This document shows, one piece after another, positions 2,901 to 57,735 of a DNA stretch of 64,000 nucleotides. The DNA is from Escherichia coli (GTDB lineage Bacteria; Pseudomonadota; Gammaproteobacteria; Enterobacterales; Enterobacteriaceae), in assembly GCF_024223415.1 (NCBI RefSeq), contig NZ_CP100502.1, one strand, 5' to 3'. The notes under the pieces were generated by a model, which was not told where the DNA came from, made no database searches, and saw nothing but the letters and a program-made list of their open reading frames with translations. The stretch's first letter is position 1; each line of letters opens with the position of its first letter. Both the position numbers and the translations under genes were made by a program.

Positions 2901-2965
2901 GGGGTCTGACGCTCAGTGGAACGAAAACTCACGTTAAGGGATTTTGGTCATGAGATTATCAAAAA
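2901..2965. mobile_element. Tn2/Tn3 IRR-end fragment (38-bp inverted repeat at 2901-2938 plus 27 bp of adjacent Tn2 sequence)
   Basis: GGGGTCTGACGCTCAGTGGAACGAAAACTCACGTTAAG followed by GGATTTTGGTCATGAGATTATCAAAAAGG, identical to the bla-proximal end at 9298-9362. Confidence 0.85.
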
Positions 2966-3003
2966 GGGGAGCCCGCAGAATTCGGAAAAAATCGTACGCT
3001 AAG
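2966..3003. repeat. 38-bp terminal inverted repeat of a Tn21-subgroup transposon (Tn1721/Tn501-like, contains GAATTC)
   Basis: GGGGAGCCCGCAGAATTCGGAAAAAATCGTACGCTAAG overlapping the tnpA stop codon, as in Tn21-family elements. Confidence 0.7.
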
Positions 3004-5965
3004 GTTTTCCGGGCATCCGTAAGGGCCGAAACTTCCCGTCTTCCAGTCTGCGGCTCTGCCGCCAGACGTAATCGCCGGTTAGGTTGATGTGCTCCCAGCC
3101 CAGCGGCGACAGGAATTGCAGCAGCTCGCCGTCCACCGGCTTGCCGGCCTCGACCAACCCCTGGGTGGCGCGTTCCAGGTACACCGTGTTCCACAGCACG
3201 ATAGCCGCCGTCACCAGGTTGAGGCCGCTGGCCCGGTAGCGCTGCTGCTCGAAGCTCCGATCCCTGATTTCCCCAAGGCGGTTGAAGAACACCGCCCTGG
3301 CCAGCGAGTTGCGCGCCTCACCTTTGTTCAGGCCGGCATGCACGCGGCGGCGCAGTTCAACACTTTGCAGCCAGTCCAGGATGAACAGCGTGCGCTCGAT
3401 CCGGCCCAGCTCGCGCAGGGCCACGGCCAGTCCGTTCTGGCGCGGGTAGCTGCCGAGCTTGCGCAGCATCAGCGAGGCGGTGACGGTGCCCTGCTTGATC
3501 GAGCTGGCCAGGCGCAGGATGTCGTCCCAGTGGGCACGCACGTGCTTGATGTTCAGGGTGCCGCCGATCAGCGGGCGCAACGTCGGGTAGGCTTGCACGC
3601 CCTGCGGCACGTACAGCTTGGTTTCGCCGAGGTCGCGGATGCGCGGCGCGAAGCGGAAGCCTAGCAGGTGCATCAGGGCAAAGACGTGATCGGTGAAGCC
3701 GGCCGTGTCGGTGTAGTGCTCCTCGATCCGCAGGTCGGACTCGTGGTACAGCAGGCCGTCGAGCACATAGGTGGAATCGCGGACGCCGACATTCACCACG
3801 CGGGTGCTGAACGGCGCGTACTGGTCGGAGATATGGGTATAGAACAGCCGTCCCGGCTCGCTACCGTACTTCGGGTTGACGTGCCCGGTGCTCTCGCCCC
3901 GGCCACCCGCGCGGAAGCGCTGGCCATCGGAGGATGAGGTCGTGCCGTCGCCCCAGTGGGCGGCAAAGGCGTGGCGATACTGGTGGTTGACCAGCTCGGC
4001 CAAGGCCGCCGAATAGGTTTCGTCGCGGATGTGCCAGGCTTGCAGCCAGGACAGCTTGGCGTAGGTCAGGCCGGGGCTCGACTCGGCCATCTTGGTCAGC
4101 CCGAGGTTGATCGCATCACCGAGGATTGCGGACAGCAGCAACGTCCTGTCTTTGGCCTCGGCCCCGTCCTTCAAGTGGGTGAAGTGGCGGCTGAAGCCCG
4201 TCCAGTCGTCCACGTCCATCAGCAGTTCGGTGATCTTGATGCGCGGCAGTAACTGGCTGGTTTGGTCGATCAGCGCCTGCGCCCGATCCGGCACCGCCGC
4301 ATCCAGCGGGGTGATTTTCAGCCCTGACTCGGTGAGGATGGCATCGGGCAGCTCGTTGTCCTTGGCCAGGCGGGTGACGGTGGCCAACTGCTCGTCCAGC
4401 AGCTGCAAACGCTCTTCCAGGTACTGGTCGCTGTTCGGGTTGATCGCCAGGGGCAGGGCCTGCTCGCGCTTGAGTGCGGCGAACTTCTCGGCCGGCAGCA
4501 GGTAGTCGTCGAAGTCGCGGAACTGCCGCGAGCCCTTGACCCAGATGTCGCCGGAGCGCAGGGCGTTCTTCAGCTCGGACAGGGCGCAGATTTCGTAGAA
4601 TTTCCGGTCGAGGCCTTCCGGGGTGATCACCAGCGGCTTCCAGCGCGGCTTGATGAAGGCCGTGGGTGCATCGGCCGGCACCTTGCGCAGGTTGTCGGCG
4701 TTCATCTCACGCAGGGTCTGCACGGCTGCCAGCACGCCTTGCGCGGCCGGCGCGGCGCGCAGTTCCAGCACCTCCAGCAAGGCCGGCGTGTAACGGCGCA
4801 GGGTGGCGAAGTTCTCGCCGACCAGGTGCAGGTGGTCGAAGCCTTCCGGCCGGGCCAGCAGCTCGGCCTCGCTGACGCTCTCGGTGAACTCGTCCCAGGG
4901 AATCACCGCCTCGATGGCGGCATAGGGGTCGCTGCCGCTTTCCTTCGCTTCCAGCAGCGCCTGGCCGATCCTGGAGTACAGGCGCACCTTGTCGTTGATC
5001 GCCTTGCCCTGCTTCTGGAACTGCTGCTGATGCTTGTGCTTCGCGCCGCTGAACAGCTTGACCAGGATGCGGTCATGCAGATCGACCAGCTCATCGATCA
5101 CGGTCGCGGTGCTCTCCAGCACCACGGCGGCCAGGGTCGCGTAGCGGCGCTGCGGCTCGAACTTACCGAGGTCTTTGGGCGTCATCTGCCCACCCTCGCG
5201 GGCCAGCTTGAGCAGGCGGTTCTGGTGGATGTGCCGGCCCAGGCCTTCGGGCAAGTCCACCAACTGAAATGTCTTCAGCCGCTCGATGTGTTCCAGCATG
5301 TGCCGAGAGTTGGGTTTCAGCGGTGCCTGGCGCAGCCAGGTCAACCAGGTGATGCTGCTGCCGGCCTTGAGCTTCAACAGCTCGTCCAGCTTGGCCCGAT
5401 GCGAGTCCGTGAGTGGTTCGACCAGGGCGCGGTAGACCCGCCGATTGGCTCGCGCAATGGCTTCCGAGCAGGCCCGGTCAATCACGCTCAGCGCCGGCAG
5501 GATGCGTCGTTTCTGCCGTAGGCTCTCCAGGGCCTGACCGGCCAGCAGCAAGCCTTTGTCGGTCTGCTGGGCCAGCTCGGTTAGCTCGCGCACCAGGGCG
5601 CGGAAGTCGGACAGGCCGAACGGGGCCAGTTGCAGGTAGGTGCGCAGTTCCTGGGCATGCTCGCGACGGGTCACGTCGCGCTCGCCGTACTTTGCCCAGC
5701 TCGCCGGCTCGGCCTGGACTTGCTTCGCCACCCACAGGATGACCGGCTCGGGCAGCTCGCTGTCGGTTCCCAGCGCGTAACCGGGGTAGCGCAGCAGGCA
5801 GAGCTGCACGGCGAAGCCGAGGCGGTTGGCGTCGCCGCGTCGCTGGCGGATCAGCGACAGGTCGGAGTCGTTGAAGGTGTAGTAGCGGATCAGGTCATCC
5901 TGGCTTTCCGGCAGCGCAAGCAGGGTGTCCCGCTCCGTGGCCGAGAGGATCAAGCGACGCGGCAT
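2999..5965 (-). CDS. tnpA: Tn3-family transposase, Tn21 subgroup
   Basis: 988-aa ORF, recognised as Tn21/Tn1721-type TnpA by recall; immediately upstream of tnpR and res. Confidence 0.9.
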
Positions 5966-51091: not shown

Positions 51092-51155
51092 TTAACCCTT
51101 GCCGTCTGCCTGTGCAGGCGGCAGGATACGTTCAGACATCTCACCAGGAGGAACC

Positions 51156-52097
51156 GTGAGTAAGAAGAAAAACACCACAACGCCCACGCCGCATGATGCC
51201 GCGTTCCGGTCGTTCCTGGCGAATCCCGACGTCGCCAGAGATTTTCTGGAACTGCATCTTCCTGCGGAGTACCGGCAGTTGTGCGACCTGTCCACGCTGA
51301 AGCTGGAACCCGCCACCTTTGTTGAGCCGGACCTGCATCAGTACGCCAGCGATATCCTCTGGAGCGTGAAAACCACCGGGGGTGAAGATGGTTATGTTTA
51401 TACGCTCATCGAGCACCAGAGCACCGAAAATCTGTACATGCCTTTTCGCATGTTACGCTACAGTGTGGCGGCGATGCAGAGACATCTGGAGCAGCACAAA
51501 ACGTTGCCACTGGTCATTCCGGTGCTGTTCTATCACGGTGAGCGCAGCCCGTACCCGTACAGCATGAACTGGCTGGACTGTTTTGAGAATCCGGCGCTTG
51601 CGGCTAAAATATACACAAAGCCGTTTCCGCTGGTTGATATCACTGTCGTTGATGACAATGAAATCATGAACCATCGCCGGATGGCCGCACTGACGCTGCT
51701 GATGAAGCATATCCGTCAGCGGGATATGCTGATGTGTCTGGACAACCTGGTCAGAGCACTGCAGGACATCCAGGATGAAGAGCAGATTACAGTTCTTTTC
51801 AACTATCTGCTTAATGGCAGCGAACATGTAACGGTTGAATTTTTGCAGACGCTGGCGCAGCGACTGCCGCAGCACGAGGACAGCATTATGACACTGGCAG
51901 AACGTCTTAAGCAGGAAGGTATCCAGCAAGGTATCCAGCAGGGTATCCAGCAGGGTATCCAGCAGGGAGTTCAGCAGGGGGCGCTTCAAAAAGCACGGGA
52001 AATCGCCCGGGAGCTCCGGAACGCGGGAATGCCGGCAGCACAAATCTGTCAGCTGACCGGACTTTCTGAAGCTGAACTGAAGAACATCACTCACTGA
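51156..52097 (+). CDS. Rpn-family (YhgA-like) recombination-promoting nuclease
   Basis: 313 aa from GTG; PD-(D/E)xK-type N-terminal region, C-terminal QQGIQQG repeat. Confidence 0.75.
   Translation: MSKKKNTTTPTPHDAAFRSFLANPDVARDFLELHLPAEYRQLCDLSTLKLEPATFVEPDLHQYASDILWSVKTTGGEDGYVYTLIEHQSTENLYMPFRMLRYSVAAMQRHLEQHKTLPLVIPVLFYHGERSPYPYSMNWLDCFENPALAAKIYTKPFPLVDITVVDDNEIMNHRRMAALTLLMKHIRQRDMLMCLDNLVRALQDIQDEEQITVLFNYLLNGSEHVTVEFLQTLAQRLPQHEDSIMTLAERLKQEGIQQGIQQGIQQGIQQGVQQGALQKAREIARELRNAGMPAAQICQLTGLSEAELKNITH
51918..51977 (+). repeat. Five tandem 12-bp repeats (GGTATCCAGCAG-like) encoding (QQGI)n within the Rpn gene
   Basis: Read directly. Confidence 0.85.
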
Positions 52098-52158: not shown

Positions 52159-52329
52159 ATGACGATTGCAGAACGTCTTATACAGAAAGGTTTTGAAAAA
52201 GGTGCTCTTGAAGTGGCGCGGGAAATAGCCTGCCGGCTTCGGGATATGGGCTGGACGCCGGAACGGATTCAGGAGGCCACGGGACTTTCCGGTGAAGAAC
52301 TGAAAAAACTGTTTCCTGATGAGCAGTAG
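52159..52329 (+). CDS. Small ORF resembling the C-terminal domain of the adjacent Rpn protein (RpnS-like)
   Basis: 56-aa MTIAERLIQKGFEKGALEVAREIACRLRDMGWTPERIQEATGLSGEELKKLFPDEQ; parallels Rpn C-terminus; SD AGGAGCAGAG. Confidence 0.5.
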   Translation: MTIAERLIQKGFEKGALEVAREIACRLRDMGWTPERIQEATGLSGEELKKLFPDEQ

Positions 52330-53187: not shown

Positions 53188-54039
53188 GTGATGAATCAGA
53201 CTTTACCCACTGCTGACCTGAATACTGCCGGCACGACAGATGTTATTCCGTCTGTGGCCATCGACCGCATCATCGCGCAGCGTAACGAAGGTATTGCACT
53301 GTTCATGCAGGCGATGGAATGCCTGGCGACAGCGCGCAGGATTCTGCTTGATGCGTCAGGTGATATTTTTCTTTACGGTTTTGAAGACTGCGTGACCGAC
53401 TCCGTTCGGTGCATGGATAAACCGGAAGAAGCGAAAAGGAATATCACCCGTCTTGCCGACCGGAAAATCTGGGACCGCCTGATGACGGATACGGGGATGT
53501 ACACCTTCATGAGTTCATGTCAGCGTGATGAGTGGAACAGCCAGCTGATGAGCGACACCTGTCCTGAAATCACCCTGGACAATGTACTGGCAACTTTTCG
53601 CCATCTGAATGCCAGTAAGATGCAGACATTTGAACAGGGACTGATTGATGTCTACCGGAAATTGTCATGGGATTACAGAACCAATAATCCCTGCCGTCTG
53701 GGCAAGAGAATCATTATTGAAAACCTGCTGTACCGCTGGAGTAACGGGCGTGTTACGCTGGACTGCAGCGGACGGGAGGCACTGGATGACCTGGTACGTC
53801 CGTTTTATCTGCTGGAGGGGCGCAACGTTCCTGACTTCCGGAGCAGCATCGGGGCGCAGTACGGTGAATTTATCGGGAACGGCGACAATGTCGGTAAGCT
53901 GTTAGAAGGGGAATATTTTACGGTGCGTGGCTACCAGAAAGGGACCGTACACATTGTCTTTAAGCGTCCTGACCTTGTTGAAAAACTGAATGATATTATT
54001 GCACGGCATTATCCTGGTTCATTGCCGCCACGAGTCTGA
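53188..54039 (+). CDS. Hypothetical protein directly downstream of the partial family A repeat
   Basis: 283-aa ORF with SD GAGGAG. Confidence 0.55.
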   Translation: MMNQTLPTADLNTAGTTDVIPSVAIDRIIAQRNEGIALFMQAMECLATARRILLDASGDIFLYGFEDCVTDSVRCMDKPEEAKRNITRLADRKIWDRLMTDTGMYTFMSSCQRDEWNSQLMSDTCPEITLDNVLATFRHLNASKMQTFEQGLIDVYRKLSWDYRTNNPCRLGKRIIIENLLYRWSNGRVTLDCSGREALDDLVRPFYLLEGRNVPDFRSSIGAQYGEFIGNGDNVGKLLEGEYFTVRGYQKGTVHIVFKRPDLVEKLNDIIARHYPGSLPPRV

Positions 54040-54123
54040 TTAAACAGAAAAGCCCTGGTATTTATGCCGGGGCTTTTTTTCTGTAATCATCATAATATCA
54101 GAACATGATGTGACATTGTCACA

Positions 54124-54465
54124 TCAATTGTTGTTCATATCGATGCCATCTTTCCTGGCTGAATCTGTCTTTTTAGATGCTGTTTTAGAGGAAGAACGGC
54201 GGGATGGCTTTTTCGATTCTGCTTCCCGAATAATGTCACGAAGTGCCTTCTCTCCTACTTCATACCCTGCATTTTTGAGCGTATCACGAACATCTGCCAG
54301 TGTATAACCCTTTGTCCTTACCAGAACAATAATGTCATCACGAATGGCATCAAGAAAATCACGCAATGTTTTCCGTTGAGCGGTGAGATCTGGCAATTCC
54401 GATAAAGCAGCTTTTGCCAGCTGGATGTCATCATCTGAGTAAAATTTTTTAGAAGCCATTGGCAC
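54124..54465 (-). CDS. Hypothetical protein transcribed divergently from nikA next to oriT
   Basis: 113-aa ORF with Lys/Ser-rich C-terminal tail. Confidence 0.45.
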   Translation of the reverse strand: MPMASKKFYSDDDIQLAKAALSELPDLTAQRKTLRDFLDAIRDDIIVLVRTKGYTLADVRDTLKNAGYEVGEKALRDIIREAESKKPSRRSSSKTASKKTDSARKDGIDMNNN

Positions 54466-54559
54466 TTTCTCTCCGTTTCATGTTGAAGTCTGATTTTATC
54501 ATCAAAAACTGACTCCTGGCAGGGCTGCGCCCTGCCTCTGCCGTCTGCATAAGACTATG

Positions 54560-54692
54560 ATGCACAAAAATAACAGGCTATAATGGCCTGAAAAACGGGA
54601 CAGGATGTGCAATTGTAATACCGTCACACGCGACGCTATTACAATTGCCATCTGGTCAGGGCTTCGCCCCGACACCCCGTAAGGAGCCTGAA
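54560..54692. other. Putative origin of transfer (oriT)
   Basis: Immediately upstream of nikA; inverted repeat GCAATTGTAATAC ... TATTACAATTGC around 54609-54658. Confidence 0.5.
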
Positions 54693-55025
54693 GTGAGTGA
54701 TAGTGCGGTAAGAAAGAAAAGTGAGGTACGGCAAAAGACAGTTGTCAGGACACTCAGATTCTCTCCTGTTGAGGATGAAACCATCAGGAAAAAAGCTGAA
54801 GATTCCGGACTTACTGTATCTGCTTACATCCGAAATGCAGCACTGAATAAGCGAATTAACTCCCGTACAGATGATGCTTTTCTGAAGGAGTTAATGAGAC
54901 TGGGAAGGATGCAGAAGCATCTGTTTGTTCAGGGAAAAAGAACCGGTGACAAGGAATACGCAGAAGTGCTTGTTGCCATAACCGAACTTACAAATACATT
55001 GCGTAAACAGTTAATGGAAGGTTGA
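54693..55025 (+). CDS. nikA: Relaxosome accessory protein NikA (ribbon-helix-helix)
   Basis: 110 aa from GTG, MSDSAVRKKSEVRQKTVVRTLRFSPVEDETIRKK. Confidence 0.85.
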   Translation: MSDSAVRKKSEVRQKTVVRTLRFSPVEDETIRKKAEDSGLTVSAYIRNAALNKRINSRTDDAFLKELMRLGRMQKHLFVQGKRTGDKEYAEVLVAITELTNTLRKQLMEG

Positions 55026-55035
55026 GGATTCTCCG

Positions 55036-57735
55036 GTGAATGCAGTCATTCCGAAAAAGAGAAGGGACGGCAAGTCTTCGTTCGAAGACCTGGTATCCTA
55101 CGTCTCTGTCCGGGATGACATGACCGATGAGGAACTGGATTTATCTTCTTCTTCGCAGGCTGAACAACCGCACCGAAGCCGTTTCAGTCGCCTTGTTGAT
55201 TATGCGACACGTCTTCGAAATGAGTCATTCGTGGCGCTGGTTGATGTCATGAAGGACGGCTGCGAATGGGTCAACTTTTATGGTGTCACCTGCTTTCATA
55301 ACTGTACTTCTCTTGAAACTGCCGCTGCAGATATGGAGTACATTGCCCGGCAGGCACACTATGCAAAAGATGACACTGATCCTGTTTTTCACTACATCCT
55401 TTCCTGGCAGTCACATGAAAGCCCGCGTCCGGAACAGATTTATGACAGTGTACGTCATACGCTGAAATCACTCGGCCTTGCCGACCATCAGTATGTCTCT
55501 GCCGTGCATACTGATACAGATAATCTGCACGTCCATGTGGCTGTTAACCGGGTACACCCTGAAACGGGTTATCTGAACCGGTTATCCTGGAGTCAGGAAA
55601 AACTCAGTCGTGCCTGCCGTGAGCTTGAACTGAAGCATGGTTTTGCTCCGGATAACGGTTGCTGGGTCCATGCACCGGGAAATCGTATCGTTCGCAAAAC
55701 CGCCGTTGAACGTGATCGCCAGAACGCGTGGACACGCGGGAAAAAACAAACTTTTCGCGAGTATGTCGCGCAGACAGCGGTCGCTGGTTTACGCAGTGAA
55801 CCTGTAAATGACTGGTTATCCCTGCATCGTCGTCTTGCGGAAGATGGTCTGTACCTGTCTCAGATGGACGGAAAATTTCTGGTGATGGATGGCTGGGATC
55901 GCAACAGGGAAGGTGTACAGCTTGACTCGTTTGGTCCCTCCTGGTGTGCAGAAAAACTCATGAAAAAAATGGGTGACTACACGCCAGTACCAAAAGACAT
56001 TTTCAGCCAGGTGGAAGCACCAGGACGCTATAATCCGGACTTCATTGCCGCTGATGTTCGCCCGGAAAAAATCGCTGAAACAGAAAGTCTGCAGCAGTAT
56101 GCCTGTCGTCATCTTGGAGAACGTCTGCCGGAAATGGCACGGGAAGGACGGCTGGAAAACTGCCAGGCTATTCACCGCACACTGGCTGAAGCGGGATTAT
56201 GGATGCGTGTTCAGCATGGTCACCTGGTTATCTGTGACGGTTATGATCATAACCAGACTCCCGTTCGTGCTGACAGCGTATGGTCGCTGCTGACGCTCGA
56301 CAATGTGAATCAACTCGATGGTGGCTGGCAGCCTGTACCAACAGATATTTTCCGCCAGGTTACGCCAACAGAACGCTTCCGTGGTCGTCGTATGGAGAGC
56401 TGTCCTGCGACCGATAAAGAATGGCACCGTATGCGTACAGGCACGGGGCCGCAGGGGGCTATCAAACGCGAACTGTTTTCTGACAAAGAAAGTCTGTGGG
56501 GATACAGCATCAGCCATTGTAGCCCTCAGATTGAAGAAATGATCACACAGGGTGAGTTTACCTGGCAGCGTTGTCATGAGCTGTTTGCACAACAGGGACT
56601 GATGCTACAGAAACAACATCACGGGCTTGTTGTCGTTGATGCCTTTAATCATGAGCAAACGCCGGTGAAGGCCAGCAGCATTCATCCTGATCTGACACTG
56701 GGGCGTGCAGAGCCACAGGCCGGACCTTTTGTGAGTGCCCCAGCAGATTTGTTTGACAGGGTGCAACCTGAAAGTCGCTATAACCCGGAGCTGGCTGTCA
56801 GTGACAGGTACGGGGTCAGCAGTAAACGTGACCCAATGCTGCGCCGGCAGCGACGTGAAGCCAGAGCTGAGGCCCGTGCTGACCTGCGTGCCCGCTATCT
56901 GGCATGGCGTGAACAATGGCGTAAACCAGATCTGCGTTATGGGGAACGTTGTCGGGAAATTCATCAGGCATGCCGTCTGCGGAAGTCACACATTCGTGCG
57001 CAGTACGATGATCCGGCATTACGTAAGCTGCATTATCACATTGCAGAAGTTCAGCGAATGCAGGCATTGATCAGGCTGAAAGAAGACATCAGGGATGAGC
57101 GACAGAAACTTATTGCTGATGGGAAATGGTATCCACCCTCTTACCGTCAGTGGGTCGAAATTCAGGCTGCTCAGGGAGACAGGGCTGCTGTATCGCAGCT
57201 GAGAGGCTGGGATTATCGCGATCGCCGTAAAGACAGGTCACGCACAACGACGACAGACCGCTGTGTCGTGCTTTGTGAACCGGGCGGAACGCCGGTATAC
57301 GGTAATACCGGTGATCTCGAGGCCCGTCTGCAGAAGAACGGGAGTGTTCGTTTCCGTGACCGTCGGACGGGAGAGTTTGTCTGTACGGATTATGGTGACA
57401 GGGTTGTTTTCCGTAATCACCATGACCGCAATGCGCTGGCAGATAAACTGGATTTGATTGCACCGGTATTATTCGGGCGTGATCCACGCATGGGTTTTGA
57501 ACCAGAAGGAAACGACAAACAATTTAACCAGGTCTTTGCTGAAATGGTTGCCTGGCATAATGTGACAGGCCGTACCGGTCACGAAGACTACAGGATTACG
57601 CGACCGGACGTGGATCATCACCGTGAAGGAAGTGAACGCTACTACCGCGATTATATCGCGGCGAACAGCAACAATGACGCATCACTGCCTCCGCCGGAGC
57701 AGGATAAACGCTGGGAACCGCCTTCTCCAGGTTAA
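55036..57735 (+). CDS. nikB: Relaxase NikB
   Basis: 899-aa ORF with relaxase histidine motif HVHVAVNRVHPETG. Confidence 0.9.
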   Translation: MNAVIPKKRRDGKSSFEDLVSYVSVRDDMTDEELDLSSSSQAEQPHRSRFSRLVDYATRLRNESFVALVDVMKDGCEWVNFYGVTCFHNCTSLETAAADMEYIARQAHYAKDDTDPVFHYILSWQSHESPRPEQIYDSVRHTLKSLGLADHQYVSAVHTDTDNLHVHVAVNRVHPETGYLNRLSWSQEKLSRACRELELKHGFAPDNGCWVHAPGNRIVRKTAVERDRQNAWTRGKKQTFREYVAQTAVAGLRSEPVNDWLSLHRRLAEDGLYLSQMDGKFLVMDGWDRNREGVQLDSFGPSWCAEKLMKKMGDYTPVPKDIFSQVEAPGRYNPDFIAADVRPEKIAETESLQQYACRHLGERLPEMAREGRLENCQAIHRTLAEAGLWMRVQHGHLVICDGYDHNQTPVRADSVWSLLTLDNVNQLDGGWQPVPTDIFRQVTPTERFRGRRMESCPATDKEWHRMRTGTGPQGAIKRELFSDKESLWGYSISHCSPQIEEMITQGEFTWQRCHELFAQQGLMLQKQHHGLVVVDAFNHEQTPVKASSIHPDLTLGRAEPQAGPFVSAPADLFDRVQPESRYNPELAVSDRYGVSSKRDPMLRRQRREARAEARADLRARYLAWREQWRKPDLRYGERCREIHQACRLRKSHIRAQYDDPALRKLHYHIAEVQRMQALIRLKEDIRDERQKLIADGKWYPPSYRQWVEIQAAQGDRAAVSQLRGWDYRDRRKDRSRTTTTDRCVVLCEPGGTPVYGNTGDLEARLQKNGSVRFRDRRTGEFVCTDYGDRVVFRNHHDRNALADKLDLIAPVLFGRDPRMGFEPEGNDKQFNQVFAEMVAWHNVTGRTGHEDYRITRPDVDHHREGSERYYRDYIAANSNNDASLPPPEQDKRWEPPSPG

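Follow-up and report, generated by a model that had tools for sequence, protein, structure and literature searches.

Immediately upstream of nikA, in the 64,000-nucleotide stretch of Escherichia coli DNA analysed here (contig NZ_CP100502.1; hereafter "the window"), lie an inverted repeat and a small gene that is transcribed away from it (positions 54124-54692), and this arrangement raises the question of what the gene is and what its product might do to the DNA beside it. A 661-bp query (54040-54700) matches 2,716 plasmid records, three of them at 100% identity, and ColIb-P9 (NC_002122) is 99.8% identical over the query; by its sequence, the window belongs to an IncI1 resistance plasmid of the R64/ColIb-P9 type. 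The gene order in ColIb-P9 is psiB, psiA, ardA, several small genes, a DUF4942 gene and then a 111-aa ORF, and past this opposite-strand "hypothetical protein" come nikA, nikB and trbC-B-A. The IncI1 match, this neighbourhood and the domains of the nikA and nikB products (table 1) therefore identify the segment as the IncI1 transfer origin. The annotation of plasmid pESBL places the origin 137–219 bp upstream of the start of its homologue of the small gene, which corresponds to the 83 bp at 54596-54678 of the window, and TnSeq insertions in those 83 bp depressed transfer, with a "required for transfer" probability of 0.72 (PMC4288162). The initial annotation was thus right to assign the repeat to a transfer origin. 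This origin is already known in detail and is in substance the R64/ColIb-P9 oriT, and nothing about it is new. The gene, on the other hand, is not the unassigned one that the same annotation took it for: it is yggA of R64, listed in pESBL as "Protein YggA" and renamed Hp23 (PMC4288162), though it is uncharacterised in IncI1.

Table 1. Features of the transfer origin and its two flanks, in window coordinates (a slash marks the putative cut)
Feature	Position	Strand	Basis or remark
G+C-rich hairpin between A/T runs	54048..54077		inverted repeat I4, 14-nt arms, 86% complementary
yggA, 111 aa	54124..54459	-	WP_000157098 in ColIb-P9; named YggA/Hp23 in pESBL
Predicted yggA sigma-70 promoter	54493..54522	-	CTGCCA, 18 nt, TG-TAAAAT; consensus scan 9/12, extended -10
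Perfect 8-bp palindrome GGCAGGGC-TGC-GCCCTGCC	54518..54536		sequence reading; over predicted yggA -35
TATAAT, perfect; candidate -10 of nikA-nikB (oriT operon) promoter	54579..54584	+	sequence reading; conserved in L005
Nick region	54596..54608	-	CACATCCTG/TCCC; inside 83-bp pESBL-annotated origin; GGGACAGGRTRTG invariant in five lineages
Nick-proximal arm of 17-bp inverted repeat (R64 oriT NikA-binding arm)	54609..54625		GCAATTGTAATACCGTC; literature
Nick-distal arm of 17-bp inverted repeat	54632..54648		GACGCTATTACAATTGC
Second origin repeat, 8-bp arms GTCAGGGC / GCCCCGAC	54654..54672		7/8 paired, 3-nt loop
nikA, ribbon-helix-helix relaxosome accessory protein	54693..55025	+	Pfam NikA-like 2.2e-22; NCBIfam MobA 1.3e-35; annotation
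nikB, MOBP relaxase	55036..57735	+	Pfam Relaxase 5.6e-31 plus TraI_middle; annotation

The inverted repeat is real. Its arms are complementary at 16 of 17 positions across a 6-nt spacer, and the perfectly paired stretch is 12 nt long, the 13th base (a C) being the single mismatch. The 64-kb window has seven places where a perfect arm of 12 nt or more pairs across a loop no longer than 20 nt in the manner of a hairpin, whereas first-order Markov simulations of the window predict 0.1 seed matches, so this repeat is not a chance feature, yet it is not unique within the window. Its position and complementarity are kept in four other plasmid lineages in which the sequences of the arms are different, which indicates compensatory change in the arms across lineages. 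In the spacer alignment of all five lineages there are two invariant blocks, one in the nick region (GGGACAGGRTRTG) and the other, CTGGTCAGGGCTTCGCCCCGACACCCC, at 54651-54677 (this most conserved block of the origin contains the 8-bp repeat), and between them the repeat arms vary in sequence and remain complementary in every lineage. This pattern fits a relaxase target that is conserved and, beside it, a NikA site that is specific to each lineage.

An IncP-like nick motif (ATCCTG/Y) is present on the minus strand as GCAATTGC-ACATCCTG/TCCC, with ATCCTG at 54606-54601, 8 nt from the 17-bp repeat, a spacing that agrees with the published one, and the nick would accordingly lie between 54601 and 54600 with the minus strand as the transferred strand. 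Only this strand and this flank agree with the position of ssb, psiB and ardA, which are on the plus strand and must use the incoming strand as template, and also put the repeat on the 5' side of the nick in the transferred strand. RP4 has the same order, a 19-bp repeat to which TraJ binds, 8 bp and then nic (PMC7314908). The initial annotation called the repeat a relaxase recognition site, and this holds in so far as it is an origin repeat beside the relaxase nick. In R64-type origins, however, as described in papers that cite the original work, the repeat is bound by the accessory protein NikA and not by the relaxase (PMC4743918, PMC9282650, PMC3817090), and identity of sequence makes the repeat here the published 17-bp repeat of R64 oriT, that is, the NikA site. 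From this literature and the nick sequence 8 nt away, the label should be a site for the accessory protein NikA that adjoins the nick site of the relaxase.

At this origin NikA would bind the nick-proximal arm, NikB would cut the minus strand at ACATCCTG/TCCC (about 54601/54600), 8 nt off the repeat, and the cut strand would leave 5' end first toward yggA, ardA, psiB and ssb. We take the nick-proximal arm to be the one bound by NikA, and the core of R64 oriT to be 44 bp. The 17-bp and 8-bp repeats would travel last and could fold into hairpins; as single-stranded DNA the minus strand of the origin (54596-54680, 85 nt) is predicted to fold with -29.7 kcal/mol (z = -8.2) into two adjacent hairpins. 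These two repeats are presumably the ones tied to termination in the R64 literature. The origin core alone (~54592-54681), without nikB, is found at 78–94% identity on many plasmids of 1.5–11 kb (H53-H69), and 1,718 of the 3,777 records matched by the origin-core search are typed "mobilizable", which suggests that hitchhikers on I-complex relaxosomes are numerous.

The ORF that diverges from this origin spans 54124-54465 on the minus strand when it is started at GTG 54465; it then has 113 aa, with the Lys/Ser-rich tail and the direction away from the repeat that had been reported for it. The RefSeq-annotated ATG at 54459, which has a GGAG 9 nt upstream, is more likely to be the real start (111 aa). 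Transcription of yggA runs away from both the origin and nikA. In comparison with its homologue in an IncB/O/K/Z-type lineage (L005, 72% identity), pN is 0.14 and pS 0.85 (saturated) over codons 1–82, and pN is 0.41 in the tail; these values indicate that yggA is a real gene under purifying selection. A profile search of 1.8 billion representatives found a family of 123 proteins at E ≤1e-3, nearly all of 90–145 aa. By tblastn a homologue is present in 3,541 of 72,556 plasmids (~5%), in 1,462 of them at less than 60% identity, and these last include IncL/M, pOXA-48-size plasmids of Klebsiella. Full-length yggA is present in 1,961 plasmids, compared with 1,986 that have the complete spacer. In every context examined (the window, L005, L007, L008, L009 and L010, with 36–72% identity and including IncL and Yersinia plasmids) yggA is divergent from genes for a NikA-like protein and a MOBP relaxase, across the origin and 250–280 bp apart. 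[quoted passage not shown] A chance or decaying frame beside the origin might be imagined from an annotation that says only "hypothetical protein" and from the lack of a curated family, but such a non-functional ORF is extremely improbable; it is refuted by the conservation pattern, with strong purifying selection, 123 diverged representatives and synteny down to 36% identity, and the IncM homologue has a phenotype (PMC6112013).

The names under which these genes are filed deserve some caution. Hundreds of records of yggA homologues (H15, H30, H75-H92; P0002-P0047) carry the propagated misnomer [quoted passage not shown], which is a mangled mobilisation-gene name and has no tie to molybdopterin; newer PGAP records call the product "hypothetical protein". 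On the pOXA-48-like plasmid (L009) the annotated mobA, the nikA homologue (2909-3472, minus strand, 187 aa), abuts the start of the yggA homologue and leaves no room for an origin. NikA has 105 aa in the pCTX-M3 paper (PMC6112013), so that the mobA start in L009 is probably too far upstream and its CDS probably covers the origin.

On its other side yggA faces a convergent gene for a 283-aa DUF4942 protein (53188-54039, plus strand), and the hairpin listed first in table 1 sits between the ends of the two genes (54039 and 54124). Rfam gives only sub-threshold, weak matches to sRNA terminators there. The hairpin is probably a bidirectional terminator, in which case yggA would be monocistronic. 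A perfect 10-bp palindrome, TGATGTGACA-T-TGTCACATCA (54106-54126), overlaps the yggA stop codon; it was flagged in the scan as terminator-like on the plus strand, and in its look it resembles a protein operator more closely than a terminator. The synteny of the DUF4942 gene with yggA is kept in L005 and L006, and its product has PHROG matches that include a family annotated as DNA methyltransferase (1e-18) and has no NCBIfam name. Farther away, an ORF for an Rpn-family nuclease (51099-52097, plus strand) has a fivefold GIQQ repeat, and it is followed by a 56-aa ORF (52159-52329, plus strand) that resembles the C-terminal tail of that nuclease (AREIA..LR..G....I...TGLS..EL) and looks like a duplicated tail gene.

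The YggA protein consists of a conserved N-terminal helical domain (residues 1–85) and a variable Lys/Ser/Arg-rich tail (83–111) that is predicted to be disordered. AlphaFold models made from alignments of 52 and 43 sequences agree in having helices at residues 9–20, 32–48, 54–63 and 70–82, with pLDDT of 73–81 over residues 30–80 followed by the disordered basic tail, and in these models the near-invariant residues L19, P23, K50-G51-Y52 and L61 frame the last two predicted helices as a helix-turn-helix. Scans of YggA and 52 family members against Pfam, NCBIfam and PHROGs gave no family match, and the sub-threshold matches to IS3/DDE transposase HTH, Clr5 and Med9 are noise. Neither the full-length model nor the truncated one had a significant match in the PDB by Foldseek, whose best-ranked entries were calmodulin-like helical noise; among the entries listed for the truncated model, 7pc1 (StbA) has the top TM-scores (0.54/0.64) and the top probability (0.57), at an E-value that is not significant. 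In profile-profile comparisons P is 4.7e-4 for YggA against IncN StbA, and hhalign aligns YggA with IncP TraK over 72 columns that share a (K/A)GY motif (61% probability, P 7.9e-5). With the same alignments the accepted relatives StbA and TraK reach only P 0.017, which is weaker than YggA against TraK. On the other hand YggA has no match to Pfam PF17273 (TraK, DUF5338) at E ≤0.1, the precomputed Pfam column is empty for relatives of YggA (PF17273 and PF28167 absent) and filled for relatives of TraK, and NCBIfam StbA_2 is matched by R46 StbA (5e-65) and not by YggA. YggA is thus probably a remote relative that works like TraK and StbA and is not a member of either curated family. We found no paper that links yggA or orf35 with StbA or TraK, and the gene is already named; new here is only that yggA is placed with the origin-adjacent DNA-binding regulators of the TraK/StbA kind.

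If YggA is such a regulator, its likely target would be the spacer that separates the nick from the yggA start codon. Transcription from the perfect TATAAT in this spacer would start ~10 nt from the nick, toward the leading region, by analogy with RP4, where the traJ start is 24 nt from nic on the side that is transferred first (PMC7314908); the consensus scan for a nikA promoter found no acceptable -35, and hence did not report this TATAAT. The perfect 8-bp palindrome over the predicted yggA -35 is a direct near-copy of the 8-bp repeat block of the origin, and the motif CAGGGCTKCGCCC has exact matches within the window only at 54520 and 54657. This palindrome is conserved in L005 and not in more distant lineages, and it is a candidate operator. 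The two G+C-rich 8-bp palindromes, at 54518-54536 and 54654-54672, bracket the origin core in direct orientation, and in L005 the corresponding copies have 15 identical bases in common; the first of them lies within the first ~80 nt of the transferred strand. Candidate roles for this upstream copy are operator, second relaxase-related site or relic of a duplication. A stbDR-like octamer, TGCATCAT, stands at the expected position of the nikA -35 (54557-54564); because it is not enriched (5 found and 3.6 expected in the window) and not conserved outside the I-complex, we treat it as chance. The nick-to-yggA spacers of the five lineages have no direct repeats of 9 nt or more and no iterated repeats, and the region is covered by no Rfam family.

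We consider it about 60% probable that this segment is the IncI1 transfer origin with its leading-side gene yggA, and that YggA is a TraK-like repressor of the divergent oriT promoters which is not essential for transfer. YggA would be the IncI/IncL/IncM counterpart of RP4 TraK and R388 StbA. It would bind the ~140-bp spacer that holds the back-to-back yggA and nikA promoters and repress both, so that expression of the relaxosome genes would be low in established donors; a new cell would lack this repression until it has synthesised the complementary strand and built up YggA. YggA would then modulate transfer and not be required for it. The identity of the locus, its anatomy, conservation and synteny and the resemblance of the fold are shown by the present analysis, and for IncI1 we infer that YggA binds, that it has an operator and that it represses. 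Counting against this repressor are the lack of a TraL/StbB partner, a spacer with no iterated repeats and a nikA -10 with no -35.

The closest genetic information comes from two plasmids. In the pESBL TnSeq screen, Hp23 scored 0.99 for non-essential, 0.01 for transfer and 0.00 for maintenance (the screen was run under selection), and insertions in it gave neither transfer loss nor a reported gain (PMC4288162); yggA is therefore dispensable for transfer of this near-identical plasmid. In pCTX-M3, deletion of orf35, whose product is 32% identical to YggA and whose gene has the same divergent position, raised the nikA, nikB and traH transcripts 40-, 23- and 80-fold and the mobilisation of an origin plasmid >200-fold, and left self-transfer unchanged (PMC6112013). 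Its authors proposed orf35-dependent repression, found no known DNA-binding motif in the protein, described yggA as the first gene of the R64 leading region and noted that it was unstudied (PMC6112013); a review says the same. Assignment to the TraK/StbA kind gives a plausible molecular basis for this published repression phenotype. Since nikAB heads the tra operon in pCTX-M3 and is separate in IncI1, the Orf35 phenotype may not carry over. A TnSeq paper on pOXA-48 has no discussion of the yggA homologue.

These data also bear on the alternatives. YggA could be a positive component of the relaxosome, which wraps origin DNA to aid nicking by NikA and NikB and is needed for efficient transfer; TraK, a listed relaxosome auxiliary protein with which YggA shares its position and a distant similarity, would be the precedent, and the conserved place next to the origin is what one would expect. 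We think this unlikely, given the two TnSeq values for transfer and non-essentiality of Hp23 and the orf35 deletion, which leaves transfer unchanged and raises mobilisation. A minimal R64 origin, moreover, works with NikA and NikB alone. Slightly less likely again is a segregation or positioning protein of the StbA type, which would act at a centromere-like site by the origin, keep plasmid copies in the nucleoid and affect conjugation indirectly. The StbA DNA-binding domain is the best structural match of the YggA model, and both proteins have the same two-domain build, the variable tail being needed for positioning in StbA; against such a role, the spacer has no stbS-like direct-repeat array and no enrichment of the stbDR-like octamer, there is no stbB partner, the "essential for maintenance" score in pESBL is 0.00 (again under selection), and the ColIb-P9 backbone has an annotated partition gene of the ParB family at another place.

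The place of yggA as first leading-region gene of R64 (PMC6112013) suggests a further role, as an establishment or anti-defence factor that is active in the new host right after entry, as many leading-region genes serve establishment. The transferred strand is, however, the coding strand of yggA, so there should be no yggA expression from the incoming single-stranded DNA, and Hp23 is not among the six early-induced operons named in the main text of the pESBL early-conjugation study; together these points argue against an early establishment role. The predicted DNA-binding helix-turn-helix fold and the absence of a match to known defence families in Pfam, NCBIfam and PHROGs count in the same direction, and we regard this as the least probable of the three functional alternatives. 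The suggestion in the initial annotation of a relaxosome or leading-end factor survives, then, in the TraK/StbA-like position, architecture and distant homology of YggA, and sits poorly with its dispensability in pESBL, with the unchanged self-transfer of the orf35 deletion and with a coding strand that is the transferred one.

Beyond the repressor of the IncI1 origin, we tentatively propose, at somewhat less than even odds, that YggA and Orf35 make up an unrecognised branch which links TraK (IncP) with StbA (IncW/IncN) and serves as a local brake on the relaxosome genes without a StbB/TraL partner. If this is true, loss of YggA would de-repress nikAB and raise the mobilisation of small plasmids with R64-like origins. 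The >1,700 small mobilisable plasmids with such an origin could use the IncI1 or IncL/M relaxosome in trans, and a YggA that represses nikAB would set the supply of relaxase for these hitchhikers; the IncM homologue shifts mobilisation >200-fold (PMC6112013). IncI1 and IncL/M plasmids rank among the chief carriers of ESBL and OXA-48 genes, and the carriers of YggA/Orf35 include IncI1 ESBL plasmids and pOXA-48-type carbapenemase plasmids. The grouping with TraK and StbA would also supply a DNA-binding mechanism to proteins that were reported without such a motif.

Comparison with the known systems shows how far the parallels extend. The origin itself is 99.8–100% identical to R64/ColIb-P9 oriT, with the same 17-bp and 8-bp repeats, the nick 8 nt off and nikA and nikB adjoining. 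Orf35 of pCTX-M3 differs in its setting, because nikAB is there fused to the tra operon and Orf35 controls the whole transfer apparatus, whereas IncI1 nikAB is a separate two-gene operon. TraK of RP4 and R751 is, like yggA, the product of the first leading-side gene, divergent from a ribbon-helix-helix gene (traJ, parallel to nikA) and a MOBP relaxase gene, and both proteins are basic and about 110–135 aa long. The RP4 origin has divergent traJp and traKp promoters, and TraK binds a ~200-bp curved region beside traKp and represses both (PMC7314908). Unlike yggA, which would be monocistronic with a convergent DUF4942 gene downstream, traK leads a traK-traL-traM operon with the ParA-like ATPase TraL (cf. 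R751), and no such partner ATPase (TraL/StbB) is found at the yggA locus; TraK also helps to build the relaxosome, whereas transfer can do without YggA. StbA (R388 IncW and R46 IncN; PDB 7pc1, PF28167, NF041290) is the best structural match to the YggA model, at a non-significant E-value. Both proteins have a conserved N-terminal domain, with a helix-turn-helix that in YggA is predicted, and a variable disordered C-terminus, and both genes adjoin the origin and point away from the relaxase operon. StbA is a repressor of its own promoter, and it holds conjugation down 50-fold. It differs in having arrays of 9-bp stbDR/stbS repeats and the companions StbB and StbC, where the yggA spacer has no arrays and its locus neither StbB nor StbC, and in its role in stable inheritance, where YggA has no maintenance phenotype in a TnSeq screen that was run under selection. 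Guynet et al. listed StbA_R388, StbA_R46, TraK_RP4, MobC_pTF-FC2, YciA_R721 and TraD_NAH7, and no IncI1 protein, as similarly located homologues, each encoded by the gene nearest the origin on its leading side, and placing YggA and Orf35 beside them would extend the rule that the first leading-side gene encodes an origin-bound regulator from MPF-T to MPF-I plasmids.
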